DNA of 64,000 nucleotides. Source: a virus. Both the position numbers and the translations under genes were made by a program. Below are positions 7,507-61,115 of this stretch, piece after piece. How positions within the stretch are numbered: the first letter of the stretch is position 1; the number at the start of each line of letters is the position of its first letter. The notes beneath the pieces are model-generated. The model made no database searches. It was not told the DNA's origin and was given only the letters and a program-made list of their open reading frames with translations. The stretch covers positions 66,398 to 130,397 of the IMG/VR virus record IMGVR_UViG_3300042261_001186; one strand, 5' to 3'.

Positions 7507-7845
7507 TTATTTTTTTCTTTTAGATATTTTTGAAATTTTATTATTCAATTCCTCTTTTGTACAATTTTCTAATCCAATTGGTCTTTCTGTTTCATCACAA
7601 TACATTTGAATATAATCATTATTGAATTCAACTATACTAATATTTAATTCATTTCCTTCAGAATCATATGTTCTGAAATCAAAATTTCTTTGAATATTAT
7701 TAAAATCAATATGTTTAATTTCTATATCATTCATACCTTTTAATAAAGTTAAATAATCTTCAATTCCATGAAAATTCCAATTTTCTTCCCCTAAAGGATC
7801 AACATCTGAGTAATCTGTTTCAAACAATTTAAATTTAGTTATCAT
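7507..7845 (-). CDS. leader + DP-tag small protein
   Basis: MITKFKLFE then DVDPLGEENW. Confidence 0.75.
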   Translation of the reverse strand: MITKFKLFETDYSDVDPLGEENWNFHGIEDYLTLLKGMNDIEIKHIDFNNIQRNFDFRTYDSEGNELNISIVEFNNDYIQMYCDETERPIGLENCTKEELNNKISKISKRKK

Positions 7846-7860
7846 TTATGAGAATTTTAT

Positions 7861-7871
7861 TTTAATATATA
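7861..7871 (+). promoter_or_regulatory. putative phage late promoter TTTAATATATA
   Basis: Same 11-mer sits upstream of genes at 16376(-), 24139, 29479(-), 31327(-), 36758, 46097, 48806, 56834, 57786, 58552, 60190. Confidence 0.55.
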
Positions 7872-7894
7872 TATAAAAATAAAAAAGACAAACT

Positions 7895-8506
7895 ATGAAA
7901 CTTTTTGAAGAATTTATACAAGCTGATTATGAGATGGACAGAATTGTCAAACAACTTATTGAAAGAATAAATTATTGGTTTAAAGATGGTTCTTTCTCTT
8001 TAAGTTCATCACCTGTTGATATAACTAAAAGTTCTACACCAAATGCTTCAAAAAGAGCAATCATAACTAATTTTGCAGATGCAGAATTCTATTACCAACT
8101 AATCATAAAAATATACATAGAAGATTTGGAAAATTGTGATGTTATACTGAAAAAATATGATCCAAATAAAATAGATGAACCAAATGGTGGCGAACCAATA
8201 TCACAAATAGATTTGACAAATGATAAACAAGTAAAAATTAATGAAGTTAAAGAAGATTTTATTATAAAGAAAATATCTGAATTGGATGATAAAAAAGAAA
8301 ATCCAGATGAAAATAAAATAGAAACACCTAAAGAAAAAGAAGAAAAACCTGCACAAGGACAACAACCACCAGCTCAAGGTGGAATGCCTCCAGGTTCTAT
8401 GCCACCTCCTGCTCCTGGTGCACAAATGGGTGGAATGCCACCTGCTCAAGGTATGGCTCCTCCAGCACAAATGGGCGGAGCACCTGGTATGCAGACCCAA
8501 ATGTAA
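7895..8506 (+). CDS. hypothetical protein with Pro/Gln/Gly/Met-rich tail
   Basis: Leader MKLFEEFI; C-terminal PPAQ(M)GG repeats. Confidence 0.75.
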   Translation: MKLFEEFIQADYEMDRIVKQLIERINYWFKDGSFSLSSSPVDITKSSTPNASKRAIITNFADAEFYYQLIIKIYIEDLENCDVILKKYDPNKIDEPNGGEPISQIDLTNDKQVKINEVKEDFIIKKISELDDKKENPDENKIETPKEKEEKPAQGQQPPAQGGMPPGSMPPPAPGAQMGGMPPAQGMAPPAQMGGAPGMQTQM

Positions 8507-8531
8507 TTTATATATAAGATAAAAAACATAA

Positions 8532-9017
8532 ATGGAAATTGTAACATCAAGTAATATGATAAGAAGATTTAGAGGAATAAAAGAATTCCAAATGAATCTT
8601 GGATTATCCAAAACAACTGAAATAAATAAAGAAGGTACAAAAAGTGGTCAACAGATAATAATAAAGATTAAAGATCCATTTGTTAAAAGATATCTTATGT
8701 TAACTGGAAATTATTTAGTAAAAAGTGGAAATATAGGTTCTTTGAATTTCTATATGGATAATTCTGTTGGTTATAATAATTTCCTTATATATGATAAGGA
8801 TAAAGAATATAAATTTGATTTTAAGGATACTGGAGATATTAGAAGTTATTTATCAGATATATTAGATAAAATACTTAATAATGAATTAACACCAACCAAT
8901 TTGGAAATGAATATGGAAGAAGAAATAGAATTCAGATTGGATAAGAATTTACCACAAAGAGAATTTTTGGAAAAACAAAAGGAAATGCAAGAGGAAATGG
9001 CAAGAATGAAAATTTAA
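8532..9017 (+). CDS. hypothetical protein
   Basis: 161 aa ORF in operon. Confidence 0.7.
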   Translation: MEIVTSSNMIRRFRGIKEFQMNLGLSKTTEINKEGTKSGQQIIIKIKDPFVKRYLMLTGNYLVKSGNIGSLNFYMDNSVGYNNFLIYDKDKEYKFDFKDTGDIRSYLSDILDKILNNELTPTNLEMNMEEEIEFRLDKNLPQREFLEKQKEMQEEMARMKI

Positions 9018-9034
9018 AAAATAAACAAAAAATT

Positions 9035-12009: not shown

Positions 12010-12576
12010 ATGAAATCTTATGAAAATTTTGTGAAAGAAGGTATTAAACATTGGTTTAGGAAAAATGATTATGTTTTGAATGGATTTATTGGTGAAACAA
12101 TAAATCTTAGGATAACAGGTACTGATCATACTGAACTCAAGACTATAACTGAAAATCCAACTTATGCTAGATCATTGAAAGATGGATTTTATGGTAATTT
12201 TGGTATTTATTTTCATTTTAATAATGATAATGGATTAAAAATAGATGATGATATAGACCCTTTAGGTGAAGAAAATTGGAATGATGAAGAGATAGAAAAT
12301 CTTATCATCAGAAATGCTCAAACTACAAAGAAAATGGTATATAATTATCCTGGGTCATTTGATTGGGATAACGTACCTTATCACATATCTTTGACTTTTG
12401 GAGATGAAGATATACCATTACAAACAGATAAAGCTGGTGTAGAATTGATAGGTAGATTGATAAAAGCTATTGCAGATAAAGAGATATGGACAGATGGTGA
12501 TAGTAAAGGATTCACTCCATTGTTACACTATTATATCGAGGAATTAGAAAGAGGTGATTCAATTTTTAATATATAA
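12010..12576 (+). CDS. leader + internal DP-tag protein
   Basis: MKSYENFVKE; DIDPLGEENW. Confidence 0.75.
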   Translation: MKSYENFVKEGIKHWFRKNDYVLNGFIGETINLRITGTDHTELKTITENPTYARSLKDGFYGNFGIYFHFNNDNGLKIDDDIDPLGEENWNDEEIENLIIRNAQTTKKMVYNYPGSFDWDNVPYHISLTFGDEDIPLQTDKAGVELIGRLIKAIADKEIWTDGDSKGFTPLLHYYIEELERGDSIFNI

Positions 12577-26970: not shown

Positions 26971-29473
26971 TCACATTTGGTTTCATATAATTTAATGTCT
27001 TATCCAATTTTTCTTTATCTAAATATTTTTCTATTTCTTCTTCGGTGGCTCTCCTGTGCCATCTATCATCATAGTTTGTTTGGCAAGTTGGTACTTTTCC
27101 TTTGTTTGGAGACCTTTTGTCAACTTCCCATATGTACCTTCTGCTAGCAACACCATTGTAGTGCATATGTAGGACAACATGAATCATAGGTTTACATTGG
27201 CCAAAACCGACTATGAAAGGGGAATACATAATGTAAAAAAATTCTTCATCATCATCCCAATCATCTTCACCATATGGGTCAACTTCACTATATACTGATT
27301 CTTTGAACATTTCTGGTTTATCTATATATCTTCCACCTTTTAAATACAACCAATGATTGTTTACATAAAGTCTATATAAACTTCCAAAAATATCTGTTAA
27401 AAATTGTAATCTAGGATTACCATCAGTTAATATTGAACCATATAAATCTAATTTATCTGCTAATGTATCAACATATTTCCTGAACCTATCATATGCTATG
27501 TCATATGGACTATTTTCTTTATTATAATAAAGTTCATATTCTTTAAAAAGATCTTTTATTTCATCTTCATCAAGTCCTATTTTTCTTAACCAATCTATGA
27601 CTTTTTCATCTTTTCCTTTAGGTATATAATTATATTTCCAATTTTCTTCTTCAAATGGGTCAACATCACTATGATTTTCATTTATTCTTTTTGTGAAACG
27701 TGGATCAGTGTACCCACCATCATACCAATAATGATCTTTATTTTTTATTTTTATCATTAATACGCCTTCGTCATTCACATACTTGTTTTCTATTTCATAG
27801 ATATCTTTATTATTGAAATAACTATTAGGTGTTGCTAACCATTTAACTTTGTCACCTATTTTAAAATTATCATAATCTATGTCATCCCAATCTTCTTCAT
27901 TATAAGGATCTACTTCTTCTTTGTTTTCATTTATAACATTTAAAATTGTGAATGAACTAATAGGTATTTCATAAAATTCCATTTCTCCTGCTGTTTTAAA
28001 TTTATCAAAAGTGAATTCAATATAATCTCCTTTTTGTTCAGTTATATTAATAATATATTTTTGATTTCTGTTTAAATGTAGATAATTGCCACCATGATAA
28101 TATACATAAAAATCCTGGTCTTGATTATTCCAGTTGTATCTATAGGCAGGTGTTTCTTGATCTTTCAACATTAAAATTTCACATTCTCCAATAGGTATTT
28201 CAACATCATTCCAATCTTCTTCACTATATGGGTCTACATCTAAATGACTTTCATTTATTATTTTGGTAAAATAATTACCTATATTACCATAATGGAAAAT
28301 TACTCTAGCATTAGCATCATTCCTCACATAAAGATAATGATCTGGATGTAGTTTACTAAGTTCAATTACTTCATATGTCTTACCTACATAAAAATGTAAC
28401 CCTCCTATTTGTCTGATACATTTCAATTTGTCACCGACTTTGTATGTTGGTCCATATTCCCAGTTATCAACATCATCTATTTTTTTACCTAAAACCCACC
28501 ATTTATCATTACTTTCATTGAGTTTTTTGATAAATAATTCAGGATGCCAACCTCTGTCAATATCAAATTTATTATTTTTCTTAACTGGTTCTACATTAAT
28601 ATAATATGTTTTAAATCCATGTGGTTTATAAACATCAAGTACAACATAATCATATCCTTTTTGTAAATATTTTGGTCCCATATTATGTCCATCAATACAA
28701 GTGACTATATCACCTATATCAAAAGGACCTTTTTCTTCTATTTCATTCCAATCTTCTTCACTAAATGAATCGACATCCAAATGTGATTCATTGAGTTTCT
28801 TTTTTTGTAATTTGAAATCGAATTCAACAAGTTCCCACTTTTCAATCCACCTACCTTGACTGATAAAGTATTTTATAGTTTTGTAATATTCTGGGTCCCT
28901 TATTTCCTTTATTTCCCCCATATATACACCATCCCAATCATAAATTATATCTCCTATGTTTATTTCAGTATCTATATTTATTTCAGATATTTCTTCATTT
29001 CCATCCCAATTATCCTCACCTAATGGATCAATATCCAAATGTGATTCAAGTAAATCTTCAATCCAATCTTCTTCACCATATGGATCATTTTCACTTATTA
29101 CTGAAGTTGGTTTTATCAATATGTCATCTAAATTCAAAAACCTTTCACGTATGGTTCCATATCTACTTTTGTAATTTATTCTTATGGGGTATTTAATTAA
29201 ATGTGTTGACCCTACTTCTTTATCTTTAGTTTTTTCAAAAGAAATTGGAATTATTTTTTCATCAACAAAAAGTCTTATGTTATGTCTGTCCACAGGGTGT
29301 TCTTTACCATAAAAATGAACTTCTTCTAATGTAAAATTTTCATTTAAATAATATATGACTTTATCCAAATCTCCAAACTTATCATAAATGTCCATTATCT
29401 TGACTTTCATAACTCGTTCTTTGTCAAAATCAAAACTTAATTGAGTTTCATATGTTTTGAAACGTTTAATCAT
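26966..29473 (-). CDS. large modular DP-tag polyprotein (835 aa)
   Basis: About eight modules separated mostly by [LI]NE[SN] + D(P)xxEE[DN]W; several F/YxIGDxVxC SH3-like modules. Confidence 0.85.
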   Translation of the reverse strand: MIKRFKTYETQLSFDFDKERVMKVKIMDIYDKFGDLDKVIYYLNENFTLEEVHFYGKEHPVDRHNIRLFVDEKIIPISFEKTKDKEVGSTHLIKYPIRINYKSRYGTIRERFLNLDDILIKPTSVISENDPYGEEDWIEDLLESHLDIDPLGEDNWDGNEEISEINIDTEINIGDIIYDWDGVYMGEIKEIRDPEYYKTIKYFISQGRWIEKWELVEFDFKLQKKKLNESHLDVDSFSEEDWNEIEEKGPFDIGDIVTCIDGHNMGPKYLQKGYDYVVLDVYKPHGFKTYYINVEPVKKNNKFDIDRGWHPELFIKKLNESNDKWWVLGKKIDDVDNWEYGPTYKVGDKLKCIRQIGGLHFYVGKTYEVIELSKLHPDHYLYVRNDANARVIFHYGNIGNYFTKIINESHLDVDPYSEEDWNDVEIPIGECEILMLKDQETPAYRYNWNNQDQDFYVYYHGGNYLHLNRNQKYIINITEQKGDYIEFTFDKFKTAGEMEFYEIPISSFTILNVINENKEEVDPYNEEDWDDIDYDNFKIGDKVKWLATPNSYFNNKDIYEIENKYVNDEGVLMIKIKNKDHYWYDGGYTDPRFTKRINENHSDVDPFEEENWKYNYIPKGKDEKVIDWLRKIGLDEDEIKDLFKEYELYYNKENSPYDIAYDRFRKYVDTLADKLDLYGSILTDGNPRLQFLTDIFGSLYRLYVNNHWLYLKGGRYIDKPEMFKESVYSEVDPYGEDDWDDDEEFFYIMYSPFIVGFGQCKPMIHVVLHMHYNGVASRRYIWEVDKRSPNKGKVPTCQTNYDDRWHRRATEEEIEKYLDKEKLDKTLNYMKPNVN

Positions 29474-36200: not shown

Positions 36201-36499
36201 CACTTATTGTTCTTTCTTTTTTTTATATATTATTCACTGGATTCTATTTCTATATGATGTATACAGAAAATGATTTCAGTGAATTCAAATGGCTTTTGTT
36301 AACACCATTGAATTTGATGTTTACTCTTTTTTTCATAGCAATGTTCATTAAAGAGAAAATAGATGATAGGAAGAATAACAGAATAAGAAAACATATAGAA
36401 AAATTGAAAATTATCGATAGGGAAGAAAAAATAAAATCAGGGTTATTGAAAACCAATCCACTTGATCCTTATTTTGAAGAAAATTGGGATGAAAATTAA
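36194..36499 (+). CDS. two-TM protein with C-terminal DP tag
   Basis: Ends PLDPYFEENWDEN. Confidence 0.7.
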   Translation: MVTLIVLSFFYILFTGFYFYMMYTENDFSEFKWLLLTPLNLMFTLFFIAMFIKEKIDDRKNNRIRKHIEKLKIIDREEKIKSGLLKTNPLDPYFEENWDEN

Positions 36500-37265: not shown

Positions 37266-37577
37266 TTAGCCCAGTCTTCCTCACCATAAGGGTCTAATTT
37301 ACTGATTATTCTTTTTGGTTCAAAATTTATTTTTTTACCTGCCATTCTCAATCCTAATATAATTCCACTTAAAAAACTATATGTCGCATCCAATCCTTCT
37401 GTATTATAACCACAAGTAAAACACATCTGATCATTTTCAACTTTAACTTCTATTTTACCATTTTCAAGAAACACCTAGTTTTGGGTAATGTTCCCAAATC
37501 GCTTTACATACTCTTTTAAGATCATCTACTGATGCAGATTCATTTAATTTTTGATATTTTTCATATTTTAGTATCAT
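37262..37577 (-). pseudogene. leader + DP-tag gene with frameshift near 37470
   Basis: MILKYEKYQKLNES... continues in a shifted frame to KLDPYGEEDWAN. Confidence 0.6.
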
Positions 37578-37638: not shown

Positions 37639-37947
37639 ATGACAGATAGAGAAAAAATAGAGGTATTTTTAGCTTATGTTAGGAATAAATTATTGGATAA
37701 ATATCCTAATATAGTAATTAATACAATAATTTTTGAAGATGAAATTACATATGGTTTTACTTTTTTTGATATTGAAAATAAAAGAATGATGGGTCAAAAT
37801 TATGTAGGTCTACATTGGTTATCTTCTCATTGGGATTCTTTAGTAAATCATATGGAAAGGACATTAAATGTTCATTTTTTCAAACCAAAAACAAAACAAG
37901 TTTTCTGTGAAGTTGATCCATTTGGAGAGGAGGAATGGGAATGTTAA
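37639..37947 (+). CDS. DP-tagged protein
   Basis: Ends KQVFCEVDPFGEEEWEC. Confidence 0.75.
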   Translation: MTDREKIEVFLAYVRNKLLDKYPNIVINTIIFEDEITYGFTFFDIENKRMMGQNYVGLHWLSSHWDSLVNHMERTLNVHFFKPKTKQVFCEVDPFGEEEWEC

Positions 37948-39721: not shown

Positions 39722-39922
39722 ATGGATGAAAAAGGTGGAATAATAGTTAAATCTAGAACGGTGAAACATAGATTGGAAATACCATTTGGTATGACGGTTC
39801 ATTATGTTTATTTAGCCAGTAATTTCATAGATCTTAATGATTCTGAATATAAAAAAGAAAAAGAAGGTAAAAGAATATTTAATGAAGTAGACCCATTTGG
39901 GGAAGAAAATTGGGAGGTTTAA
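39722..39922 (+). CDS. DP-tagged protein
   Basis: Ends GKRIFNEVDPFGEENWEV. Confidence 0.7.
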   Translation: MDEKGGIIVKSRTVKHRLEIPFGMTVHYVYLASNFIDLNDSEYKKEKEGKRIFNEVDPFGEENWEV

Positions 39923-39923: not shown

Positions 39924-40322
39924 ATGGCACTCAAATATTTGATAGTAAATAGAAGTAGAGTAAGAAATGTAAGGGGAGAATATATCCTTTATAGGTATAC
40001 TCTTCAGAATTACAACAATAAATTAATTAGGTATCATGAGAAAGTTGTTGATCATGATTCATCTAGTTATTTGATTAAACATATTGTTATAACTCAAACA
40101 TATGTAAATAGATTCCAAGGACATATAGACAAAATGGCAAAAATAAAATTTTGGACACCTTGGACATTAAAAAAATATGAAAATGAAATAATAAATTTCA
40201 CATATTTCGGTCAACTTCAAGAAGTATTAAACATGTTTAAATATTTGGATTATAATGAAGTAAAAGGGCAAAAATTCATACCGGAACTTGACCCATTCGG
40301 TGAAGAAAATTGGGAGGGATAA
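39924..40322 (+). CDS. DP-tagged protein
   Basis: Ends GQKFIPELDPFGEENWEG. Confidence 0.75.
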   Translation: MALKYLIVNRSRVRNVRGEYILYRYTLQNYNNKLIRYHEKVVDHDSSSYLIKHIVITQTYVNRFQGHIDKMAKIKFWTPWTLKKYENEIINFTYFGQLQEVLNMFKYLDYNEVKGQKFIPELDPFGEENWEG

Positions 40323-40326: not shown

Positions 40327-40701
40327 ATGATGAGACTTAACTTAGAAATGCGACAGAAAATAGGACAACTGCAAGCTGTCTTAAATGATTTGAAAGATTT
40401 GCAAAGCAAATTGGAAGAAAATGTAATTCATTACAAGATTAAAAATATTGAATATGATCAGGTTAATGAACTTATAAATAAAAATATAGAAATTTTAGAA
40501 ATTGAAATAAATTTCTTTAGTAATTGTTCATATAAGTATAGTAAAAAAATAGATGATAGAATATCTATGTTTAACCATACTAAAAATGGATTACTTGAAA
40601 ATTATAATTATATGTTTTATATGGAACCTAAAGGTCAAAACATAACTGATGAAGATCCTTTTGGTGAAGAAAATTGGGATTCAGATGATGATAATATTTA
40701 A
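40327..40701 (+). CDS. DP-tagged coiled-coil protein
   Basis: GQNITDEDPFGEENWD near C-terminus. Confidence 0.75.
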   Translation: MMRLNLEMRQKIGQLQAVLNDLKDLQSKLEENVIHYKIKNIEYDQVNELINKNIEILEIEINFFSNCSYKYSKKIDDRISMFNHTKNGLLENYNYMFYMEPKGQNITDEDPFGEENWDSDDDNI

Positions 40702-41152
40702 CATAATACTTGGTAGTGTAATTCTTATTGTTTTTGTTTCTCTTATTTCTCTTTATTTATATTTTAATATGAAAGATAATAAATTTAAGAAATATATAAA
40801 ATATTTTTTTAGAGAAGAAAGATATGTGAATAGTTTGAAACGTACTTTTACTTTAATTAATGAAGATTTAAAAGAAATTGAATTCAAATTAGTAAATGTT
40901 CGTTATGATAAAGATATTATTGTAAAAGTATGGAATTTAGAATTCAGTATAGCTAGGACTCTTAAAGAATTTAATGATGTTGATTTTTGGACTAAAGGAA
41001 AATATTATAAGTTTTATGAAAAATTCAAAAAATATGAAAGAGAATTAATAGTAATACGAAAATTAAATGATATTTTAAATGATAACACTCCAAGAGGTCA
41101 AAGATTTATACCTATTGATCCATTTGGAGAAGAAATTTGGGAAGATGATTAA
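40685..41152 (+). CDS. membrane-anchored DP-tagged protein
   Basis: N-terminal TM; ends IDPFGEEIWEDD. Confidence 0.75.
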   Translation: MMIIFNIILGSVILIVFVSLISLYLYFNMKDNKFKKYIKYFFREERYVNSLKRTFTLINEDLKEIEFKLVNVRYDKDIIVKVWNLEFSIARTLKEFNDVDFWTKGKYYKFYEKFKKYERELIVIRKLNDILNDNTPRGQRFIPIDPFGEEIWEDD

Positions 41153-42575: not shown

Positions 42576-42798
42576 AGTAACTAGGGAACAAGTAGAGGAT
42601 TTAAAGAATTTTCATATGGGTATAGATGTAGTTCAAGCTCTTGAAGCACAATTGATTAAGGAGTTAACTGAAAATATTTCAGAAAATATAAGAGTTAGGA
42701 TTCAAACCATAAGAAGTTATGATTATCCTGAGTTAAAGAAATACAAACAAGTGTTTAATGAAGTAGATCCTTATGGAGAAGAAATGTGGGAGGAATAA
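42565..42798 (+). CDS. DP-tagged protein
   Basis: Ends KQVFNEVDPYGEEMWEE. Confidence 0.7.
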   Translation: MNCKVTREQVEDLKNFHMGIDVVQALEAQLIKELTENISENIRVRIQTIRSYDYPELKKYKQVFNEVDPYGEEMWEE

Positions 42799-42800: not shown

Positions 42801-43037
42801 ATGAAAAATGTTATGATAGTGGAAAACGTAAATCCGACCGGCGAAATCGTATTGAAAGGGACGTTCGTGACTTTCTCAATTAAGAATTCCGGTAGGTTCT
42901 ATGATGTTGAGATGTATAAATCCGCGTTGGCCGAGATATTGGCCAGAAAAGCCGAAAACGAGGAAAAGAAAAAACAGGCTTTCTGCCAGGTGTTCAGCGA
43001 TGTGGACCCATACGGGGAAGAAGAATGGGAGGCTTGA
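42801..43037 (+). CDS. DP-tagged protein (first gene of CpG-rich island)
   Basis: Ends QVFSDVDPYGEEEWEA. Confidence 0.7.
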   Translation: MKNVMIVENVNPTGEIVLKGTFVTFSIKNSGRFYDVEMYKSALAEILARKAENEEKKKQAFCQVFSDVDPYGEEEWEA

Positions 43038-43038: not shown

Positions 43039-43524
43039 ATGGCATTGGTTAAAATGACGAACGCGACGCAGGAATTCAAGGACAACCTGACGGCGCAAGC
43101 GAGGTACCTCGAAATAGAAAACACTTACTTAGGCAGCGTGAATAGGGATTGCTGGGTATGGACTGGCAGGTGCTTCGCGCAGACTCTGAAAGGCAAAAAC
43201 TTGAATTTGGATGGACACCGCGATTTCGGATGGATGAATTTCAAGGGATTCTCAAGAATAGACGGGTGCCCGGTTTTCTTAGTGCCTGAGAATTTCGCTG
43301 CAGGGGATAGATATGCTAGGATGATAGAAGTGTTCGGATTGATGACTTTGAACGCGGACGGAACGGCGAAGCATTATCAAAAAAACGATTTGCGGTTCCA
43401 ATTGATAGAGCCTGTTTTTGAGGTGAGATATGCGCCCGGATACAAGCCTCTCCCTATGAAAAAATACAAGCAAGTCTTCAGCGAAGTCGATCCTTTCGGC
43501 GAAGAGAACTGGGAGGAGGATTGA
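43039..43524 (+). CDS. DP-tagged protein
   Basis: Ends KQVFSEVDPFGEENWEED. Confidence 0.75.
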   Translation: MALVKMTNATQEFKDNLTAQARYLEIENTYLGSVNRDCWVWTGRCFAQTLKGKNLNLDGHRDFGWMNFKGFSRIDGCPVFLVPENFAAGDRYARMIEVFGLMTLNADGTAKHYQKNDLRFQLIEPVFEVRYAPGYKPLPMKKYKQVFSEVDPFGEENWEED

Positions 43525-43747
43525 TAGACGACAGGGAATACGTGAAAAGGCTGAAGTTTTTCAGGGAGCTGAAAATGACAAAGACAAATGGGCATCTTTC
43601 AGCGACGCAGAAAGGGGCCTGCTTTTGGAAAAAATGAGGGAAGTCTCCGATTATTCCGCGAATTTCAGGAAAAACAGAAAATTTAAAAAACTGCAAAAAT
43701 ATAAAGAAATAGACCCTTACGGGGAAGAAAACTGGGAGGACGATTGA
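43521..43747 (+). pseudogene. DP-tagged gene with frameshift near 43575
   Basis: MIDDREYVKRLKFFRELK joins DKDKWASF...EIDPYGEENWEDD if one A is added to the A run. Confidence 0.6.
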
Positions 43748-43748: not shown

Positions 43749-43982
43749 ATGGGCGGGAGCTTAAGGATTACGACTAAATTCAACAAATATGCGATCGCGG
43801 AATCAAAAGGCATAGACATGCTGAAAATAATAGAAGACGATTTGATAAGGCAGATGAAAAACTTAGGTTATCACAAATACGAAGTGATTAGGCACGATGA
43901 TTCTATCGTCGTTCAATCCTGCACCGGAACAAGGATTTTTTCAGAAGTCGATCCTTTGGGCGAAGAAATATGGGAGGACTGA
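43749..43982 (+). CDS. DP-tagged protein
   Basis: Ends RIFSEVDPLGEEIWED. Confidence 0.7.
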   Translation: MGGSLRITTKFNKYAIAESKGIDMLKIIEDDLIRQMKNLGYHKYEVIRHDDSIVVQSCTGTRIFSEVDPLGEEIWED

Positions 43983-46134: not shown

Positions 46135-46587
46135 ATGAATAATTTGAAAACATACAATAGTTACTTGAATGAAGGTAGGTTAATGGCTCAAAAAGAATAT
46201 GATGAAGTGTTGATAAAGATAATGAATAATATGAAAAAGTTTGTGAATGTTGCTAAAATTGAAGTAACTAAAACTAGTACAGCTAGGTATGATAAGATAA
46301 ATTATTATTATGAATATAACAAAAGTGATTATAAAGAAAGAGCACATATGGATGTTGATCCCTTAGGTGAAGATGATTGGGATGATGACAATGTTAAAAA
46401 TAGGACATTGAATTTGAGAGCAAAATATGAAGAAGATGTTGGGTTTTTTCATAAAATAAAAGAATATGATTTTTGGATAAACAATGAAAAGCTTCAAATA
46501 TCAACCTATCTTATCAAGGATTTTATAAACTTATTGAAAAAGGCTAAATCAGATAGTATTAAAAAAAAATTTTTAGAAGATGTATAA
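46135..46587 (+). CDS. leader + internal DP tag, tandem paralog 1
   Basis: MNNLKTYNSYLNE; DVDPLGEDDW. Confidence 0.8.
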   Translation: MNNLKTYNSYLNEGRLMAQKEYDEVLIKIMNNMKKFVNVAKIEVTKTSTARYDKINYYYEYNKSDYKERAHMDVDPLGEDDWDDDNVKNRTLNLRAKYEEDVGFFHKIKEYDFWINNEKLQISTYLIKDFINLLKKAKSDSIKKKFLEDV

Positions 46588-47143
46588 ATTAAAAACATAT
46601 GAAGAATACCAATTAAATGAAGCTAAGTACTTCAATAAACAAATGTATGATCCATTAATCACTAAAATTTGTGACATACTAGAAACAGGTGTCAGGTTGG
46701 ATAGGTTAAGGGTGAATAAAGATAGTCAGGGACTCCTGGGCATGAGAGTGTATAATAGAGTTTGTAATGATCATTATCAATATACATACATAAAAAATGA
46801 TTACATTAAAAGGAATCACACAGAAAATGATCCTTATGGTGAAGATGAGGAATTGAATCCTGCAGAAACACTTGTCATAATAGCTAGAAAAGTCACCACT
46901 AGAATTTGGAAAAGAAAACTTCAGGAGTTTGTGAAATACCCTAGTTATAAGATGAGTATAAATGGTTATGATATCAGAGTTTCAAATTACTTAGTTAAAA
47001 GGTTTATATATATAATGGAGAATGCCAAGAAGATAAAGGAGAGAGAAGATAAGAATTATCAAAAACAAAGAGAAATTGAAGCAAAAATAAGAAGAGAACA
47101 AGAAGACCTTGAAAAAAGGGATAAATGGATGAGTTCAATATGA
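46580..47143 (+). CDS. tandem paralog 2
   Basis: MYKLKTYEEYQLNE; ENDPYGEDE. Confidence 0.8.
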   Translation: MYKLKTYEEYQLNEAKYFNKQMYDPLITKICDILETGVRLDRLRVNKDSQGLLGMRVYNRVCNDHYQYTYIKNDYIKRNHTENDPYGEDEELNPAETLVIIARKVTTRIWKRKLQEFVKYPSYKMSINGYDIRVSNYLVKRFIYIMENAKKIKEREDKNYQKQREIEAKIRREQEDLEKRDKWMSSI

Positions 47144-47544
47144 AAAACTTGATAACATATAAACAATACCTCAATGAAGGTTGGTTCAGTGGTAAACATG
47201 ATGGTATAGGCAGGAAAATATATCAATATGTCTTTGATAGAGATGATATAGAATATGTTTATAGTGGAGGTGGTGATTATTACACTTTTTATTTAAAACC
47301 TACTGCTATACAAAACCCAGAGGCTGATCCTTTAGGTGAAGATGATTGGAATGAAAATATAGATAATCATCCTATACGAATTTATGTAAGTGGTGAATAT
47401 AAATTGAGATTAGATGGTGAAAACATAGATGTTTCTTCAGGTATAGTTAAAAAAATATACAAAGAACTCAAAAATAAAGCTAAAAAAATAGCAGACAAGA
47501 AACTACAAGATAAAATAGATAGAGCAGAAAAATTATTAAGATAA
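47140..47544 (+). CDS. tandem paralog 3
   Basis: MKNLITYKQYLNEGWF; EADPLGEDDW. Confidence 0.8.
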   Translation: MKNLITYKQYLNEGWFSGKHDGIGRKIYQYVFDRDDIEYVYSGGGDYYTFYLKPTAIQNPEADPLGEDDWNENIDNHPIRIYVSGEYKLRLDGENIDVSSGIVKKIYKELKNKAKKIADKKLQDKIDRAEKLLR

Positions 47545-47558: not shown

Positions 47559-47981
47559 ATGAATAATCTAAAGACATATGAAGAAATGGGTTGGTTTTCT
47601 AAAAAACCAAAATTTCTTGTAAAACCAGATGATGATGTTGCAACTAAACTTTTAGATTTTATAGTTAAACATTGTGATGAAATAGATTTACGAAATGATG
47701 CTGGTGATTACAGAATAAAAGTTTTCAGTATAAAACAAAAATCAGAGAATCCAGCAGATGATCCTTTAGGTGAAGATGATTGGGATGAAGAATCAACGGT
47801 AATTGTAAAATTAGACTCTAGATATGAAAGATTGACTATTGATGATCAACTTCTAGATGTTTCTGTAGACCTTAAACTTAAAATTAATGATGCTTTAGAT
47901 AACATATTAACATTGAGAGCGAACAAGATAAAACAGGCTAAGATAGACAAAATGCATAATCTTTTAAAAAAATTTGACTAA
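47559..47981 (+). CDS. tandem paralog 4
   Basis: MNNLKTYEEMGWF; DDPLGEDDW. Confidence 0.8.
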   Translation: MNNLKTYEEMGWFSKKPKFLVKPDDDVATKLLDFIVKHCDEIDLRNDAGDYRIKVFSIKQKSENPADDPLGEDDWDEESTVIVKLDSRYERLTIDDQLLDVSVDLKLKINDALDNILTLRANKIKQAKIDKMHNLLKKFD

Positions 47982-48394
47982 TGATGAAAAATTTGAAAAC
48001 ATATGATGAATTATATGAAGGTTGATTTAAGTCAACTCCGAAACCAGATGATGCTGCAGCTGAAAGGCTCCTACAATACATAGTAAATCATTGTGATGAA
48101 ATAGATTTGATATCAACACATGGTGGATATCATTACAATTTTGACATAAAAGAGAAAATACATAATGAAGAAGATCAATTAGGTGAAGAAGATTGGGGAG
48201 AAGTTATTCCAGTACATTTTGAAGGTGATAGATGGCTTTCTATTGATGGAGAAACATTGGATTTGTCTAAGAAAATGGGTTGGAAAATAAAAGATGCTTT
48301 GAAAAATCTAGATATATTGAAAAAAAACAAGATAAAACAGAGCAAGATAGATAGGATGGATAATTTAATAAAAAAATTAAATAAACATGAATAA
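47981..48394 (+). pseudogene. tandem paralog 5 with in-frame TGA at 48023-48025
   Basis: MMKNLKTYDELYEG-TGA-FK where paralogs read GWF; frame otherwise open. Confidence 0.7.
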
Positions 48395-48800
48395 TTTAAA
48401 GACATATGATGAATTAAATGAAGAACTGTTTTTCAAGAAAAAGAAGAAGGAAGATGATGTATTCGGTCAAAAATTGTTGGATTTCATAGTGAATCATTGT
48501 GATGATATAGATTTGAAAAAACAAGGACGTTATTACACTTTCATCTTAAGAGCTGACAACAGAAATGAAAATGATCCATTGGGTGAGGAAGATTATGATA
48601 CTGATGTCAAAATAGTATATTGGGATTCAGATAGCACTTTTCATGACACCTTGGAAATTGATGGAGATGAAATAGATTTGTCAAGAGATATGAGGCATAA
48701 AATATTAAAAGCCCTTAAAAACCTTGATCAATTGAAGAAAAACAAGATCAAGAGAGGCAAGATGGAGAAAACAGAGAATTTATTGAAAAAATTCGATTAA
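48387..48800 (+). CDS. tandem paralog 6
   Basis: MNNLKTYDELNEE; ENDPLGEEDY. Confidence 0.8.
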   Translation: MNNLKTYDELNEELFFKKKKKEDDVFGQKLLDFIVNHCDDIDLKKQGRYYTFILRADNRNENDPLGEEDYDTDVKIVYWDSDSTFHDTLEIDGDEIDLSRDMRHKILKALKNLDQLKKNKIKRGKMEKTENLLKKFD

Positions 48801-50804: not shown

Positions 50805-50807
50805 CAT

Positions 50808-51509: not shown

Positions 51510-52404
51510 TTCCATATATTTCATTTTGCATTGCTTCCATAGCCATAACTACAGCAGCAAAAGTTCCTTCTATAACATAACCATAAAGACTTTCCACACC
51601 TACTTCTTCATCATAGAAATCATTATCTGCCAATATCTGATCTACATCATTTTGGTATTTCAAATAAAAATCAAAAATGTCAGCATCTTCAATAAAACCT
51701 TCAAGTACTTCTTCTGAATCCTCATTAACATAACTATCTATGAAATCCTGTACTTTTGTAATATCACCATCTAATTGTTTATCTAATAACTCTAATATAC
51801 CTCTTTTAAGAGATGTATAAGTGTTGGATACCTTATCCCTTAACTCATCAGTGATAGCTTCATTAACAGAAGGATTGACCTGTTTAAATGACTTCAGGCC
51901 TTCATTTGAATTCATTATTTCAATGAGACTTTTTCTTAAATCCATAGTTTTGAAAGTCTTTTTAGGTTTTTCTTCACCATCATTCCAATCTTCTTCACCA
52001 AAAGGATCTCTTTCATCATAAACTCTTTGAGATTGTGATATAAGACCATTGAATGATTTGACTTTTTCATCCATTTGTTTAATATTAACCATAATCTCAT
52101 AATTCTTTATTATGTCATATAAATTCTCTATATCTTCATAAACACTATCTATTATTTGATCATTACCTTCTTGATCAGTAACTTTCTTTTTTACTGCATT
52201 AATAGTGTAGTTTTTCTTACCTTCTCTATTAAAATTCAATTTGAAACCAGTTTTGGTTTCTTTAAAAGAATCAAAATAATCACTTTTTATAACATCATGG
52301 TTATAAACATAATCACATACTTCCTTAGCTAGACTAAGTAGATCACCAAATGAATGATGATTAGTATAATGTTGTTCGAAAAATTTTGAAAAATTTAGTG
52401 TCAT
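51502..52404 (-). CDS. leader + internal DP-tag protein
   Basis: MTLNFSKFFE; ERDPFGEEDW; internal VNEA. Confidence 0.75.
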   Translation of the reverse strand: MTLNFSKFFEQHYTNHHSFGDLLSLAKEVCDYVYNHDVIKSDYFDSFKETKTGFKLNFNREGKKNYTINAVKKKVTDQEGNDQIIDSVYEDIENLYDIIKNYEIMVNIKQMDEKVKSFNGLISQSQRVYDERDPFGEEDWNDGEEKPKKTFKTMDLRKSLIEIMNSNEGLKSFKQVNPSVNEAITDELRDKVSNTYTSLKRGILELLDKQLDGDITKVQDFIDSYVNEDSEEVLEGFIEDADIFDFYLKYQNDVDQILADNDFYDEEVGVESLYGYVIEGTFAAVVMAMEAMQNEIYGNE

Positions 52405-57441: not shown

Positions 57442-57499
57442 AGGTCATTGAAAACAATGATTAAAGAGATCAGAAAACTAGTTTTTTGATCTTTTTTAT

Positions 57500-57769: not shown

Positions 57770-57823
57770 ATTTAAACAAGTAATTTTTAATATATATAGA
57801 AAATAAAATGTTCGTTTTTTACA

Positions 57824-58165
57824 ATGATTAATAAATTCCATATGTTTGAAAATAAAAGAAGAGACATAGATCCTTATGATGAAGAAATTTGGGATGATGT
57901 AGATTATGAGATGATGTTTGTAAAGTTCCTAATTCAAAATAAATTGGTGAATAAATATGTACCAAATTTATTGACATCTAAATTAGTCAAAGTAGAGACA
58001 GTAAAAGAATTTATGGATCAATTCCCACCAGAAAGATGGGTAAGAAACGCTTTTCGTTGGACAGACACTTCTCAAGATTTTATGTTTTGGAATAATATAG
58101 ATATAATGTGGAATCAAATATTGGTCAATCACAATTATGATTTTGAAGAACATGCATATGAATAA
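57824..58165 (+). CDS. leader + DP-tag protein
   Basis: MINKFHMFEN; DIDPYDEEIW. Confidence 0.75.
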   Translation: MINKFHMFENKRRDIDPYDEEIWDDVDYEMMFVKFLIQNKLVNKYVPNLLTSKLVKVETVKEFMDQFPPERWVRNAFRWTDTSQDFMFWNNIDIMWNQILVNHNYDFEEHAYE

Positions 58166-58182
58166 TAAAATAATATAATTAT

Positions 58183-59008: not shown

Positions 59009-59085
59009 AAATAATATACCTTATGATGTTTTAAAAGATTCTTGACTTAGGAGTAGAACTTTTTTTAAATTAAATATTTTTATAT

Positions 59086-59724
59086 ATGAAATTAGAAGAT
59101 TTTATAAAAATAGTGGAACCATACTCTATGACTAGTAGAGATAGGATAAGAGAATTGTTTTTTTCTTTAGAATACATCAGAATAAATGACATAAAAGGGG
59201 ACTTAGTTGAATGTGGTGTTTGGAAAGGTGGAAATATATTGGGTATATTGGAATATTTGGAATTTTATAAAATGTATAATTTTAATGTATGGTTATATGA
59301 TACATTCAAAGGAATGACAGAACCAGAAGGAGTTGATGTTGATTTTCAAGGAGTCAAAGCTGATGAATGGAAAGAAACCTGTTATTCATCTTTAGAAGAG
59401 GTTAAAGGAAACCTATCTAAATCATATTTCAAATCAGAAAATATTAAATATGTTGTTGGAGATGTTGAATATACACTGGATGTAAAAGAAAATTTACCAG
59501 AAAAAATATCATTGTTGAGATTAGATACAGATTGGTATAAATCCACAAAGAAAGAATTAGAAGTGTTATATCCTTTTCTGAATAAAAATGGAATATTGAT
59601 AGTTGATGATTATGGTCACTGGAAAGGATCTAAAAAAGCAGTAGATGAATATTTTGAAAAAAATAACATAACTAATTTTGAATATATTGATTATACTGCA
59701 ATAAAGATAATGAAAAATAAATGA
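59086..59724 (+). CDS. TylF/MycF/NovP-family O-methyltransferase
   Basis: GDLVECGVWKGG, YDTFKGM, LLRLDTDWYKST, VDDYGHWKG. Confidence 0.9.
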   Translation: MKLEDFIKIVEPYSMTSRDRIRELFFSLEYIRINDIKGDLVECGVWKGGNILGILEYLEFYKMYNFNVWLYDTFKGMTEPEGVDVDFQGVKADEWKETCYSSLEEVKGNLSKSYFKSENIKYVVGDVEYTLDVKENLPEKISLLRLDTDWYKSTKKELEVLYPFLNKNGILIVDDYGHWKGSKKAVDEYFEKNNITNFEYIDYTAIKIMKNK

Positions 59725-59767
59725 AATATTTTGGTAAACATTTCTATTTCATTTCCATATATATTTT

Positions 59768-60160
59768 ATGAATTTTATAGATATAATAAATAGGATATTT
59801 TACTTCAAAAACCAATATTCAGAAGTGTCTGATGAGGATAAGGTGGCATCTTTCTTTATGATTAATCGTAAATTAGGTAAAGGTTGTCCAGAATTAGCAA
59901 TGAAATTCAATGATAAGAACATAGACAAGGCATCTGCAGTTGATATGTGGTTTGAGCATTTCAAAGATGTTAATATAATACCAGATTGGTATTGGGATCC
60001 TAAAAATAGAAAAACAAACAATAAATCTAAAAAATTAGGAGATTATCAATTAGTTAAGGAAAGACATGAATTAAGTGATAATGATATGGAATTCCTTGAG
60101 AAATATTATGAAGATGATCTTAAAAGTGAAATGAAAAAGATTAATAAGTTTGAAGTTTGA
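59768..60160 (+). CDS. hypothetical, weakly like clamp-loader small subunit (T4 gp62)
   Basis: FMINRKL...A..FN pattern only. Confidence 0.3.
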   Translation: MNFIDIINRIFYFKNQYSEVSDEDKVASFFMINRKLGKGCPELAMKFNDKNIDKASAVDMWFEHFKDVNIIPDWYWDPKNRKTNNKSKKLGDYQLVKERHELSDNDMEFLEKYYEDDLKSEMKKINKFEV

Positions 60161-60218
60161 TAATTTTCAATTATATTTGCATATTGGAATTTAATATATA
60201 AACTAAAAACTTTTTTTA

Positions 60219-60743
60219 ATGGAAATATTATCAGACAAACCACAAGAGAAAGGTGCTAAGAGTTGGATTAAACTCAATCAATTAAAACTTCAAGGTAGAA
60301 AAGGTGAACTCACTAGAGAATATATGAATTCTAAAGGTGCTGTTGCTGCTGTAGTTTATGATACTATCAAAAATAAATATATTTTTGTTAAACAATTCAG
60401 ACCTGGACCTAAGAAAGAAATACTTGAAATTGCAGCAGGTATGAGAGATCATACTGGTGAAGATCAAAGTAAGACTATGATTAGGGAAATAGAAGAGGAA
60501 TTGGGATATAAAACTGATACTATTAATATTATAGTTAAATCTTATTATACATCACCTGGACATTCAAATGAGACTATGATTATTTATTTTGCAACAGTTT
60601 CTAAAAAAATTGGTGAAGGTGGTGGTTTAGAAGAAGAAAATGAAGAAATAGAAATTGTTGAATTAACTAAAGAAGAAATAAAGAGAACAGAATTTGTAGA
60701 TGGTAAAACATTACTTGCCTTAGCAGTTTTAAAATTAAAATAA
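60219..60743 (+). CDS. Nudix hydrolase, ADP-ribose pyrophosphatase-like
   Basis: KQFRP, EIAAG....REIEEELG, YTSPG, DGKT. Confidence 0.9.
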   Translation: MEILSDKPQEKGAKSWIKLNQLKLQGRKGELTREYMNSKGAVAAVVYDTIKNKYIFVKQFRPGPKKEILEIAAGMRDHTGEDQSKTMIREIEEELGYKTDTINIIVKSYYTSPGHSNETMIIYFATVSKKIGEGGGLEEENEEIEIVELTKEEIKRTEFVDGKTLLALAVLKLK

Positions 60744-60767
60744 TTATCAGAAATAAAATCTAATCTT

Positions 60768-61115
60768 ATGAAAACATTTGAAAATTTTAAAGAGGAAAGC
60801 ATAATTGTTGAAGACTCTTTCATTATATTTGAAGTCCATAAAAAATTTAATGGTGTTACAGATAATACTCTTGAGTTCATGGTTAAAAAAATGGCTCGTA
60901 AATATTTGCGAATAAGAGGAGAAACCATATATTGCAAGGACATTGTAATCAAAATGACAGGTATAATGAATCAAGATAATACTTACATGAAAAATTTGAA
61001 TTTTGCCTATGTGGACAAAGATTCAAATGAACATGGTCTACCAGTAAGGGAAAAAATAGAGGTTTTGAGAATAACTTCTTCAGTGGATCCATATGGTGAA
61101 GAAGATTGGGAATAA
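60768..61115 (+). CDS. leader + C-terminal DP-tag protein
   Basis: MKTFENFKEE; VDPYGEEDWE. Confidence 0.75.
   Translation: MKTFENFKEESIIVEDSFIIFEVHKKFNGVTDNTLEFMVKKMARKYLRIRGETIYCKDIVIKMTGIMNQDNTYMKNLNFAYVDKDSNEHGLPVREKIEVLRITSSVDPYGEEDWE

Follow-up and report, generated by a model that had tools for sequence, protein, structure and literature searches.

The acidic-aromatic tip at the C-terminus of SSB is a peptide through which one protein meets many partners, and proteins described as polyvalent in phages and conjugative elements (Iyer and colleagues, 2017; PMC5512222) are reportedly multi-module. In T4, the capsid targeting sequence (CTS) is carried by IPI-III and Alt, and gp21, the prohead protease, cuts it off. 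Its sequence reads MKTYQEFIAE (PMC8442874). As stated in PMC9026906, residues 4 and 7 of the CTS serve targeting and residues 8 and 10 processing, the cleavage motif of the gp21 protease is L/I-X-E with very few determinants beyond P3-P1 in T4-type proteases, and Alt and gp21 possess C-terminal propeptides. The highly diverse defence proteins that T4 injects are also described as sharing a conserved tag (PMC3012670), and the cargo-loading peptides of encapsulins, which are short and terminal, as sufficing to direct unrelated cargo into the interior of a protein shell (PMC7925596).

We analysed a window of 64,000 nucleotides from a 130,397-bp contig of an uncultured giant bacteriophage, in which one common peptide of eight residues, Asp-Pro-x-Gly-Glu-Glu-x-Trp, is encoded by about one quarter of the genes, either terminally or between domains. 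The consensus is DP[YLF]GEE[DN]W; the residue in front is hydrophobic, and one to three acidic residues come behind. This tag is real and non-random: DPxGE occurs 38 times in the whole contig, whereas 50 shuffles averaged 0.08 occurrences and never exceeded 2, the strict 30-nt form of the tag pattern matches five times in the window and 0 times in 100 dinucleotide-preserving shuffles, and a six-frame scan placed all 29 window occurrences of DPxGE in ORF sense frames. A looser pattern, which admits DPY[NSDE]EE.W, DSLGEE.W, and DQLGEE.W, detected 41 copies in 29 ORFs of the window (Table 1), or 42 in 30 when the Trp-less DPYGEDEEL of ORF 46580-47143 is counted, compared with the approximately 45 copies in over 30 ORFs of both strands given in a preliminary description. 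The pattern census proposed there for the genome and its relatives also returned 103 DNA matches in LR756501, a syntenic 735-kb phage, and 0 in the reversed control.

The locations named in that description (after a leader, internal, and at extreme C-termini) were borne out as well. Eight of the 41 window copies are near the N-terminus (e.g., ORFs 7507-7845 and 57824-58165), 19 are internal (ORFs 12010, 26966-29473, 30137-31321, 46135-48800, and 51502), and 14 are at most 16 residues away from the C-terminus (ORFs 36194-43982, and 61086). C-terminal copies are often preceded by [KG][QR][VI]F.E[VI], the matched upstream segment of this class being [KG][RQ][VI][FI][SNT]; 39 of 51 end at exactly Trp+2, and Trp is never the final residue of a carrier. 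Most of the seven copies in ORF 26966-29473 come after [IL]NE[SN]H.[DE]V.

Table 1. Tag copies in the window. "To stop" marks peptides given up to the stop codon.
Position	Strand	ORF	Peptide	Context
7777..7800	-	7507-7845	DPLGEENW	Residue 16; adjoins leader MITKFKLFE
12256..12279	+	12010-12576	DPLGEENW	Internal
25050..25073	+	24942-25295	DPYGEEDW	Residue 37
25540..25563	-	25276-25605	DPFDEENW	Variant behind leader
26075-26098, 26321-26344, 26681-26704 (span 26075..26704)	-	25892-26737	DPY[ND]EENW	Three variants
27257..29086	-	26966-29473		835 aa; seven copies at module junctions, starting at 27257, 27638, 27887, 28211, 28748, 29006, 29063
30146..31285	-	30137-31321		394 aa; five copies alternating with small beta-rich modules, starting at 30146, 30542, 30803, 31040, 31262
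35213..35236	+	35054-35383	DPLGEEDW	Internal
36464..36487	+	36194-36499	DPYFEENW	C-terminal variant; hydrophobic segment at N-terminus
37227..37250	+	36768-37265	DPYGEENWEEDD	C-terminal, to stop
37271..37294	-	37262-37474	DPYGEEDWAN	C-terminal, to stop
37915..37938	+	37579-37947	DPFGEEEWEC	C-terminal, to stop
39890..39913	+	39722-39922	DPFGEENWEV	C-terminal, to stop
40290..40313	+	39897-40322	DPFGEENWEG	C-terminal, to stop
40654..40677	+	40288-40701	DPFGEENWDSDDDNI	Near-C-terminal, to stop
41117..41140	+	40649-41152	DPFGEEIWEDD	C-terminal, to stop; membrane-anchored protein
42766..42789	+	42565-42798	KQVFNEVDPYGEEMWEE	C-terminal, to stop
43005..43028	+	42786-43037	DPYGEEEWEA	C-terminal, to stop
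43489..43512	+	42901-43524	DPFGEENWEED	C-terminal, to stop; true start probably near 43039
43712..43735	+	43625-43747	DPYGEENWEDD	End of 40-aa ORF, to stop
43950..43973	+	43749-43982	DPLGEEIWED	C-terminal, to stop
46357..46380	+	46135-46587	DPLGEDDW	Internal
46829..46852	+	46580-47143	DPYGEDEE	Degenerate, no Trp; paralogue of 46135-46587
47326..47349	+	47125-47544	DPLGEDDW	Internal
47760..47783	+	47559-47981	DPLGEDDW	Internal
48173..48196	+	48107-48394	DQLGEEDW	Variant
48573..48596	+	48387-48800	DPLGEEDY	Variant
51985..52008	-	51502-52404	DPFGEEDW	In 52-aa insertion at domain junction
57869..57892	+	57824-58165	DPYDEEIW	Variant behind leader MINKFHMFE
61086..61109	+	60768-61115	DPYGEEDWE	C-terminal, to stop; CTS-like leader MKTFENFKEE at start

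The data support a portable tag carried by mostly unrelated proteins. Motif-masked blastp among 32 contig carriers linked three small paralogue groups only, and outside these groups the earlier statement that carriers are unrelated holds. No carrier has a known function; most are small, poorly conserved accessory proteins, and a homologue in the 634.8-kb huge phage LR745206 is present for 10 of 86 carriers versus 197 of 954 other proteins. In orthologue pairs with LR756501, where 86 of 1040 ORFs bear the tag, gains and losses are always terminal or at domain junctions: the 52-aa tag-bearing insertion of ORF 51502-52404 is missing in the LR756501 orthologue, and in a PRTase-like pair the flanks have diverged and the tag is kept. 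Single proteins can hold many copies, with four in a deaminase/CCA-adding/HD protein of LR756501 and 12 in the 1537 aa of P0040. The membrane carriers reported previously stand for ORFs 36194-36499 (read from the sequence) and 40649-41152, whereas the hydrophobic start of ORF 37579-37947 needs a doubtful TTG start. Membrane proteins account for 7 of 86 carriers and 99 of 954 non-carriers in LR756501, which is the background rate.

Database searches support the specificity of the tag to one lineage of Mahaphage-type huge phages. Three other huge phages of >630 kb had 0 matches, 185,579 cellular genomes (596 Gb) yielded 10 single stray matches, the 101 tag loci in IMG/VR cluster in ~25 large contigs, and 502 of 1.84 billion cluster representatives matched. 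LR745206 has its own C-terminal tag, RDxK[IL]xx[IL]L (about 80 copies of RD.K[ILV]), which is similar in lying mostly ≤10–15 residues from the C-terminal end of small proteins that are unrelated, some copies being internal or N-terminal, and in belonging to a genome with the same kind of N-terminal leader. However, it is of opposite chemistry, being basic and hydrophobic and having no Trp, and the two tags do not overlap between genomes, with 0 DPxGEExW matches in LR745206. A different tag in this phage fits a reader that would co-evolve with the lineage.

The phage has a T4-type head module, comprising a gp23 MCP (PF07068, E = 3.5e-26), a gp20 portal (E = 7.9e-72), and an 823-aa protein whose N-terminus matches the head maturation protease phrog_207 (E = 2.5e-28; the match to Peptidase_S77, E = 5e-4, is below the cut-off). 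This protein continues as ~13 tandem 14-residue repeats, SEY[IV]AEN.DKSI.Y, whose richness in [IV]AE fits the gp21 motif. A leader of the pattern [FYW]xx[FYW][LIVFM]xE within the first ~20 residues was found in 18 of 187 ORFs of the contig (1.2 expected) and in 55 of 1040 ORFs of LR756501 (3.3 expected), in the exact T4 CTS register in six and 12 ORFs, respectively. Treated as incidental in the preliminary description, the leader is instead a T4-CTS-like second element, statistically linked to the tag both on the contig (16 of 35 carriers versus 25 of 152 other ORFs; p = 5e-4) and in LR756501 (25 of 86 versus 122 of 954; p = 1.5e-4), and this enrichment takes in carriers with an internal or C-terminal tag. 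TM segments are rarer in leader-bearing proteins (4 of 147 versus 102 of 893). LR756501 also encodes a 178-aa paralogue of the protease domain with the tag at its end; a similar tail is found at IMG/VR locus L073, and P0071 has the order protease fragment, tag, MCP N-arm fragment, tag. In the tagged paralogue, Tyr and Arg-Pro replace the His and Ser-Ser that 32 of 32 main proteases share, and judged on these residues it is probably inactive.

The tag resembles the T4 CTS in being a short portable peptide on diverse, fast-evolving accessory proteins, in its statistical link to a leader fitting the CTS pattern, and in its occurrence in a phage with gp23/gp20/gp21-type head genes, and T4 too has C-terminal propeptides. 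Nonetheless, it is acidic with an invariant Trp and nothing like MKTYQEFIAE, is mainly internal or C-terminal (33 of 41 window copies), occurs on membrane proteins at the background rate, is usually without an adjoining L/I-X-E site, and marks 8%–24% of genes, compared with a handful for the CTS. Encapsulin C-terminal targeting peptides are likewise short terminal peptides on unrelated cargo, although the tag is also internal and on membrane proteins, and we know of no sequence similarity between the two motifs. The earlier analogy to the SSB tail stands as a conceptual likeness (an acidic stretch around a key aromatic, frequently on a flexible segment at the very C-terminus) and fails in its particulars: two thirds of copies lie away from the C-terminus (the window has 14 C-terminal copies among 41), one to three residues follow Trp, and the one-to-many logic is reversed, with many proteins sharing one tag. 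Polyvalent proteins are similarly multi-module proteins from interchangeable domains in phage conflict loci; in contrast, the tag is one conserved junction peptide found also on dozens of single-domain proteins, which to our knowledge does not feature in the description by Iyer and colleagues.

Together, the features of the peptide support its reading as a putative portable docking tag, whereas the one hub to which all carriers would be recruited in the preliminary description is hypothetical. With a probability of about 0.38, we propose a lineage-specific tag for docking or addressing in trans, whose most likely destination would be the T4-type prohead assembly core. The tag would be accessible on fast-evolving accessory proteins, at their termini and between their modules, and bound in trans by a putative phage-encoded partner co-evolving with the lineage, and tag and T4-CTS-like leader together would load cargo into the prohead core, where it may later be trimmed by the gp21-like protease and then delivered with the DNA. 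We infer trans binding, the identity of a reader, capsid loading, and any cleavage. The prohead is suggested as the destination because the gp23/gp20/gp21-like head genes and the [IV]AE-rich scaffold are present and T4-CTS-like leaders co-occur with the tag. The head-related fragments that bear the tag, the excess of [LI]xE sites upstream of it (29 of 131 copies against 13 expected), and the tagged injected proteins and C-terminal propeptides of T4 also speak for this reading. Several observations count against it. Integral membrane proteins cannot be capsid cargo, so the membrane carriers argue against a capsid destination, as do the size of the carrier set, which far exceeds any known cargo set, and the lack of a cleavage motif near most copies. 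Unlike the T4 internal proteins, carriers are not basic (median pI without the tag 6.9, versus 6.3 for other proteins), and they have the head-gene promoter-like motif at the background rate (13 of 86 versus 135 of 954 others). The leader already resembles a capsid signal and is present in tag-less LR745206, so the tag may do something else, and the tagged protease paralogue, being probably inactive, need not enter proheads.

At P, G, E, and E of the motif, codons are used as in the genome background (chi-square p = 0.72, 0.12, 0.95, and 0.09), with a mild GAC excess at D (14 of 54 versus 7 expected; p = 0.004), and since synonymous codons track genome usage, selection acts on the peptide rather than on the DNA, as previously claimed. 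Module exchange does take place at the tag, and another window motif, ..EE[DN]IEW. before a stop, does act like a DNA element; however, an element that acts as DNA (at recombination junctions, in regulation, or as a translational signal) and is translated by chance is contradicted by this codon usage, by the confinement of all copies to ORF sense frames on both strands, and by the many third positions at which copies differ, leaving identity too low for homologous exchange, and is thus extremely improbable. Also unlikely is a polyprotein junction, in which the tag with its preceding [IL]NE-type site would mark cuts between modules by the gp21-like head protease or another, terminal copies being leftovers of modules encoded as separate genes. 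Consistent with such cuts, every module boundary is tagged in the bead-like proteins (ORFs 26966-29473 and 30137-31321, and P0040) and the LR756501 deaminase protein has its four tags, window junctions [IL]NE[SN]H.[DE][VI]DP match L/I-X-E, multi-domain phage proteins of the polyvalent kind have been described, and [LI]xE lies ≤10 residues upstream of 29 of 131 copies against 13 expected (2.2-fold). The remaining 102 of 131 copies nevertheless have no [LI]xE in that range, and 76 of 131 not even [LIVFM]xE; a cut at the 39 copies ending at Trp+2 would free a short peptide only, cleavage would not benefit membrane proteins with a single terminal tag, and an invariant D, P, G, E, E, and W downstream of any Glu site is at odds with T4-type proteases needing little beyond P3-P1.

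We are similarly doubtful of a structural element in cis, a turn, cap, or metal-binding loop insulating modules or stabilizing small domains with no trans partner. The tag is always at domain boundaries, D-P-x-G is turn-prone, the upstream segment and fixed W+2 end would suit a hairpin, and AF2 modelling of a 36-residue tail gave a pLDDT of about 75 over the tag, yet DSSP assigned only coil to this model, with no hairpin. The EF-hand/DxDxDG pattern does not match either, as Y/L/F occupies position 5 and E position 8. It is difficult to see why dozens of unrelated folds, with the cytoplasmic tails of membrane proteins among them, would share one identical cap; orthologues function with and without the tag, and a chemically opposite tag occupies the same positions in the sister lineage (LR745206). 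Less probable still is a turnover or chaperone tag, a degron or adaptor motif timing the removal of early accessory proteins and read by a phage ClpA/B-like AAA+ protein or a host protease. The contig does encode a ClpA/B-type AAA+ protein (AAA_2 E = 1.1e-62; ClpB_D2-small), the window contains a tmRNA gene (Rfam RF00023, 69.9 bits), a sign that the phage invests in tagging and proteolysis, most carriers are small and poorly conserved, and degrons act from either end and on membrane proteins. However, the AAA+ protein is also found in tag-less LR745206, whose copy is 52% identical to that of the contig compared with 40% for LR756501, the motif is unlike the ARAGORN-called tmRNA tag and all three tmRNA reading frames, and degrons seldom occur in several internal copies within one protein. 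We think it no more probable that the small beta-rich modules are themselves the readers, forming a multivalent [Tag-reader]n network or condensate that would recruit single-tag clients, some of them membrane-anchored. This would accommodate the membrane carriers, and tag and ~70-aa beta-rich module strictly alternate in ORFs 30137-31321 and 26966-29473 and their five homologues, and the protease-scaffold has a comparable small beta segment in its conserved C-terminal part. Against this, architecture is its sole basis, AF2 yielded an uninformative model (mean pLDDT 40.4), and other bead proteins join quite different modules (GNAT, zinc ribbon, enzymes) by the same tag.

The DP[YLF]GEE[DN]W-type tag is a genuine, peptide-selected, portable, and lineage-specific short linear motif. 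The preliminary description reported this eight-residue peptide on dozens of unrelated proteins, an observation borne out by counts far above those in shuffled sequence. The contig (130,397 bp, 28.6% G+C, with the window as its second half) has 38 copies of the core DPxGE, 29 of them in the window, and each is read in the sense frame of an ORF, against a chance mean of 0.08 over 50 shuffles, and a strict 30-nt pattern matched five times in the window versus none in 100 dinucleotide-preserving shuffles. With variants admitted, 41 copies lie in 29 window ORFs, plus one copy lacking the Trp; eight of the 41 are near the N-terminus (first 40 residues), 19 are internal, and 14 are C-terminal. Selection had also been placed on the peptide, not the DNA, and a codon-conservation test aimed at refuting this left it standing: because codon choice at Pro, Gly, and the two Glu positions follows genome usage (p = 0.72, 0.12, 0.95, and 0.09, respectively), the constraint is on the peptide, and the reading as a DNA element was rejected. 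The Asp codon shows a mild excess of GAC (p = 0.004).

Motif anatomy was derived from 131 strict copies in this contig and in LR756501, a tagged 735-kb huge phage, with the invariance of D, P, G, E, E/D, and W built into the search pattern. Y, L, or F occupies position 3, and N or D precedes W; after W come D/E/N and then D/E, and the D of the tag is preceded by L, V, or I and, one residue further upstream, by E or D. C-terminal copies share an extended upstream consensus, [KG][RQ][VI][FI][SNT][EP][LV], and 39 of the 51 found in the two genomes terminate exactly at W+2. SSB-type acidic tips are located at the extreme C-terminus with an aromatic or hydrophobic residue last, a pattern not matched by a tag that is C-terminal in 14/41 window copies and has Trp last in 0/51. 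In EF-hand (DxDxDG) calcium loops, positions 1, 3, and 5 are acidic or polar ligands, position 6 is Gly, position 8 is hydrophobic, and position 12 is Glu; this reading was likewise rejected, as the tag places Y/L/F at position 5 and Glu at position 8, and just 71 of 131 copies have D/E at position 1.

After masking of the motif, blastp linked only three small paralogue groups among the 32 contig carriers, and none of the 25 window carriers scanned (of 29) reached a Pfam cut-off. Among 39 carriers scanned against PHROGs, matches were confined to two bead-like proteins (multi-module carriers), to families of unknown function and, weakly, to one 'DNA binding protein'. Comparison with orthologues illustrates how portable the tag is: one window protein bears it on a 52-residue insertion at a domain junction, absent from the 48%-identical LR756501 orthologue; one contig gene has the tag at its end versus a Lys-rich tail in its orthologue; another has the tag together with a differing C-terminal module; and in a PRTase-like pair it occupies the same junction in both, with diverged flanks. 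In bead-like proteins the modules set apart by the tag differ widely in kind (small beta-rich domains, GNAT, zinc ribbons, deaminase, CCA-adding enzyme, and HD domains), and one metagenomic protein has 12 copies in 1537 residues. Window junctions typically read [IL]NE[SN]H.[DE][VI]DP.GEE.W.

DNA relatives among 50,697 phage records were restricted to LR756501 and LR756503 (735-kb uncultured huge phage), at 67% identity across window positions 459–7522, with weak matches to three other genomes above 630 kb. The contig is syntenic with LR756501 (50%–90% protein identity, blastp), and excerpts of Al-Shayeb et al. (PMC7162821) assign genomes of 634–735 kb to the 'Mahaphage' clade with predicted Bacteroidetes hosts, without mention of the peptide in those excerpts; nor did a full-text string search for it give a phage-related description among the matches listed. 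LR756501 yielded 103 DNA matches versus 0 for a reversed control, and 100 strict peptide copies, all DPYGEExW, in 86 of its 1040 greedy ORFs (18 N-terminal, 43 internal, and 39 C-terminal). In IMG/VR, at least 152 loci matched one pattern and 101 the strict one, clustering on about 25 large contigs. Searching with a profile built from the C-terminal module recovered, at E <= 0.001, 502 of 1.84 billion cluster representatives (one, P0057, was a false positive, an unrelated repeat protein); of the top 150, the 88 largest include 85 without a Pfam family. A tblastn search for cultured phages with a bead-like protein found only LR756501 and LR756503. Scanning one representative cellular genome per species (185,579 species, 596 Gb) yielded only single hits, 10 in total, from unrelated high-G+C organisms, which we read as chance rather than host mimicry.

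Tag matches numbered zero in LR745206, LR756504, and LR756502. The 634.8-kb huge phage LR745206 (loci L309–L340) instead has about 80 copies of another portable tag, RD.K[ILV] (full form [IL]RDxK[IL]xx[IL]L), mostly at the C-termini of unrelated small proteins. Since this tag is chemically unlike DPxGEExW, tag identity switches between lineages while usage stays constant.

Common to all three genomes is not the tag but an N-terminal leader, [FYW]xx[FYW][LIVFM]xE, found in 18/187 contig ORFs (1.2 expected; for example MKKFQEFLNEA, MRNFLEFLNES, and MIKNFKLFE, with further forms MKxFxxFLNE and MNNLKTYEE), 55/1040 LR756501 ORFs, and 26/969 LR745206 ORFs. It resembles the T4 capsid targeting sequence (CTS), MKTYQEFIAE (excerpt of PMC8442874), in which residues 4 and 7 serve targeting and residues 8 and 10 processing (excerpt of PMC9026906), the determinants being an aromatic at 4 and 7, L/I at 8, and Glu at 10 (excerpts of both). 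T4 gp21 cleaves after L/I-X-E (excerpt of PMC9026906), and T4 internal proteins are described as highly diverse defence proteins with the CTS as their sole common feature (excerpt of PMC3012670). Leader-bearing proteins are depleted in transmembrane segments, and tag carriers are enriched for the leader with odds ratios of about 3–4 (p = 5e-4 in the contig and 1.5e-4 in LR756501), including carriers whose tag is remote from the N-terminus. The tag itself is not a CTS: only 8/41 window copies and 18/100 in LR756501 are N-terminal, these come after the leader and do not form it, and DP.GEE.W does not fit residues 4/7/8/10, unlike the leader that these proteins carry separately.

Locations of features discussed in the text
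Feature	Location	Evidence
Gp23-like major capsid protein	contig, beyond window	PF07068, E = 3.5e-26
Gp20-like portal	contig, beyond window	PF07230, E = 7.9e-72
Protease-scaffold, 823 aa	contig 55710-58181 (-), beyond window (L156:3713-6181)	phrog_207, E = 2.5e-28
Tandem paralogues, 316-353 aa	window 420-3541 (-); contig 65627-66577 (-)	
Leader-bearing ORFs, examples	window 12010, 14353-14730(-), 24155, 46135, 47559, 48387, 49582, 50259, 60768	N-terminal pattern
Membrane-anchored carriers	window 40649-41152, 36194-36499	
Carrier with 52-residue insertion	window 51502-52404	
Carrier with tag versus Lys-rich tail	contig 10762-11250	
Carrier with differing C-terminal module	contig 36751-37482	
Tagged protease paralogue, 178 aa	LR756501 11314-11850 (-)	
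RimK-like ATP-grasp protein	contig 42747-44159 (+), beyond window	
Family B DNA polymerase, apparently split	contig 37621-39132 (+); window 54032-55717 (-)	
tmRNA	window 20736-21135 (+)	Rfam RF00023, 69.9 bits
ClpA/B-like AAA+ gene	contig 50662-52866	
Promoter-like motif genes, examples	window 4694-6802(-), 7895, 26966-29473(-), 30137-31321(-), 46135; contig MCP, protease, portal, tail fibre	
Y[KD][ED]E[DN]IEW[LVFMIY] C-terminus genes	window 14009-14730, 21401-22050, 24155-24951, 32881-35063, 37935-39667, 199-423	

A T4-type head module lies on the contig just beyond the window. In its protease-scaffold protein, residues 1 to ~255 match the head maturation protease family (Peptidase_S77, the T4 gp21 family, at E = 5e-4, below the Pfam cut-off), fused to ~13 tandem 14-residue repeats, SEY[IV]AEN.DKSI.Y. 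The repeat region is scaffold-like and rich in [IV]-A-E; it is followed by a Gln/Gly-rich stretch and a C-terminal domain for which most of the 33 metagenomic homologues recovered show 70%–82% identity. As expected of a phage with a T4-type CTS, a prohead protease of the gp21 family thus occurs together with a scaffolding core, here in a fusion that recalls the herpesvirus protease-scaffold. Four tandem paralogues adjoin the module, three with leader-like N-termini; they are conserved in both LR756501 and LR745206 and are candidates for internal, inner-body-like head proteins. Elsewhere, the family B DNA polymerase is apparently split between two genes far apart, and its C-terminal half has a weak TPR-like N-terminus.

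The best reading of the motif is a docking tag, with the prohead core as the leading candidate destination, to which we give a probability of a little under 0.4. Two chimeric or duplicated head-related proteins carry the tag. LR756501 encodes a paralogue of the prohead protease domain with the tag at its end, which is probably inactive because Tyr and Arg-Pro replace the His and Ser-Ser of 32/32 aligned main proteases, and the 149-aa metagenomic protein P0071 consists of a protease fragment and then an MCP N-arm fragment, each followed by a tag; either protein might act as an assembly decoy or regulator. Against pure capsid cargo stand the tagged membrane proteins (two window carriers; in LR756501, 7/86 carriers versus 99/954 non-carriers, so that membrane proteins are tagged as often as others), the sharing of the leader rather than the tag, and the carriers themselves, which show no real charge difference from other proteins and are not basic. 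Nor are carriers preferentially behind the promoter-like motif of head genes.

A rival reading is a multivalent scaffold built from tags and their readers. The tag could also mark a processing junction: [LI]xE falls within 10 residues upstream of 29/131 copies versus 13 expected, while 78% are without it, which also counts against pure capsid cargo. A structural cap acting in cis is another rival; AF2 modeled a 36-residue tail (41-sequence alignment) as coil, with pLDDT 70 and about 75 over the tag, and the lack of regular secondary structure leaves a beta-hairpin unsupported. The 394-aa bead protein, from an alignment of only six sequences, reached a mean pLDDT of 40.4, too low to be informative. 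A turnover tag is a further rival, and the contig encodes both a tmRNA and a ClpA/B-like AAA+ protein. The tmRNA tag is GKNQIL according to ARAGORN, and another frame ends in AKESAELALA, closer to the canonical SsrA ending; nothing like DP.GEE.W appears in its three frames, and an SsrA-type, tmRNA-encoded degron was rejected.

Extending the docking reading, we propose, speculatively and as less likely than not, that lineage-specific 'postcode' systems operate in the huge phages of the Mahaphage group, each lineage placing its own tag (DPYGEExW here and in LR756501, RDxKIxxIL in LR745206) on between about a tenth and a quarter of its proteome, membrane proteins included, and that a co-evolving phage-encoded receptor gathers the carriers into one phage-built assembly. 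This assembly could be the prohead core, from which carriers would then be injected as an effector arsenal, or alternatively a cytoplasmic or membrane-attached factory. A search for the reader returned more than 50 proteins common to the contig and LR756501 and absent from LR745206, among which no single candidate stands out. A RimK-like ATP-grasp protein was dropped because many C-terminal tags end in a residue other than Glu. Its gene lies immediately upstream of a run of tagged genes, encodes a 290-aa N-terminal domain without assigned identity, and is present in LR756501 with no blastp hit in LR745206.

In the largest phages known, one eight-residue peptide would organize a large part of the dark-matter proteome. 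Should it be an address tag, hundreds of ORFans of unknown function would fall into one class (effectors that are packaged or injected, for instance, or phage-assembly clients), and the tag would offer a handle for receptor discovery, with the LR745206 tag as a built-in test of specificity. The T4 CTS has already been used to load foreign proteins into capsids, and the tag could become a natural tool for loading them into huge ones.

Two further motifs were also observed. Many start codons are preceded, at 13 or about 26–38 nt, by a promoter-like motif, T(T/A)TAATATATA(G/A); among genes with 40 nt or more of upstream gap, AATATATA precedes 28/80 in the contig (1.6 expected) and 103/347 in LR756501. 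The form TTAATATATA(G/A) precedes head and tail genes and occurs at background rate before carriers, and promoter timing was rejected; TAnnTTTG is too frequent to help as a promoter signal. A second shared C-terminus, Y[KD][ED]E[DN]IEW[LVFMIY] directly before the stop, is found in 20 small contig genes and in none of LR756501 or LR745206. At the DNA level it is almost invariant (ATAGAATGGnnnTGA/TAA, in many cases preceded by AAAGAGGAGGA), and the ATG within GAATGG serves as start codon for the overlapping gene that follows (MVM.., MGM.., MAM..). This C-terminus looks like a Shine-Dalgarno-plus-start coupling cassette and is therefore probably a DNA-level feature, at least in part.
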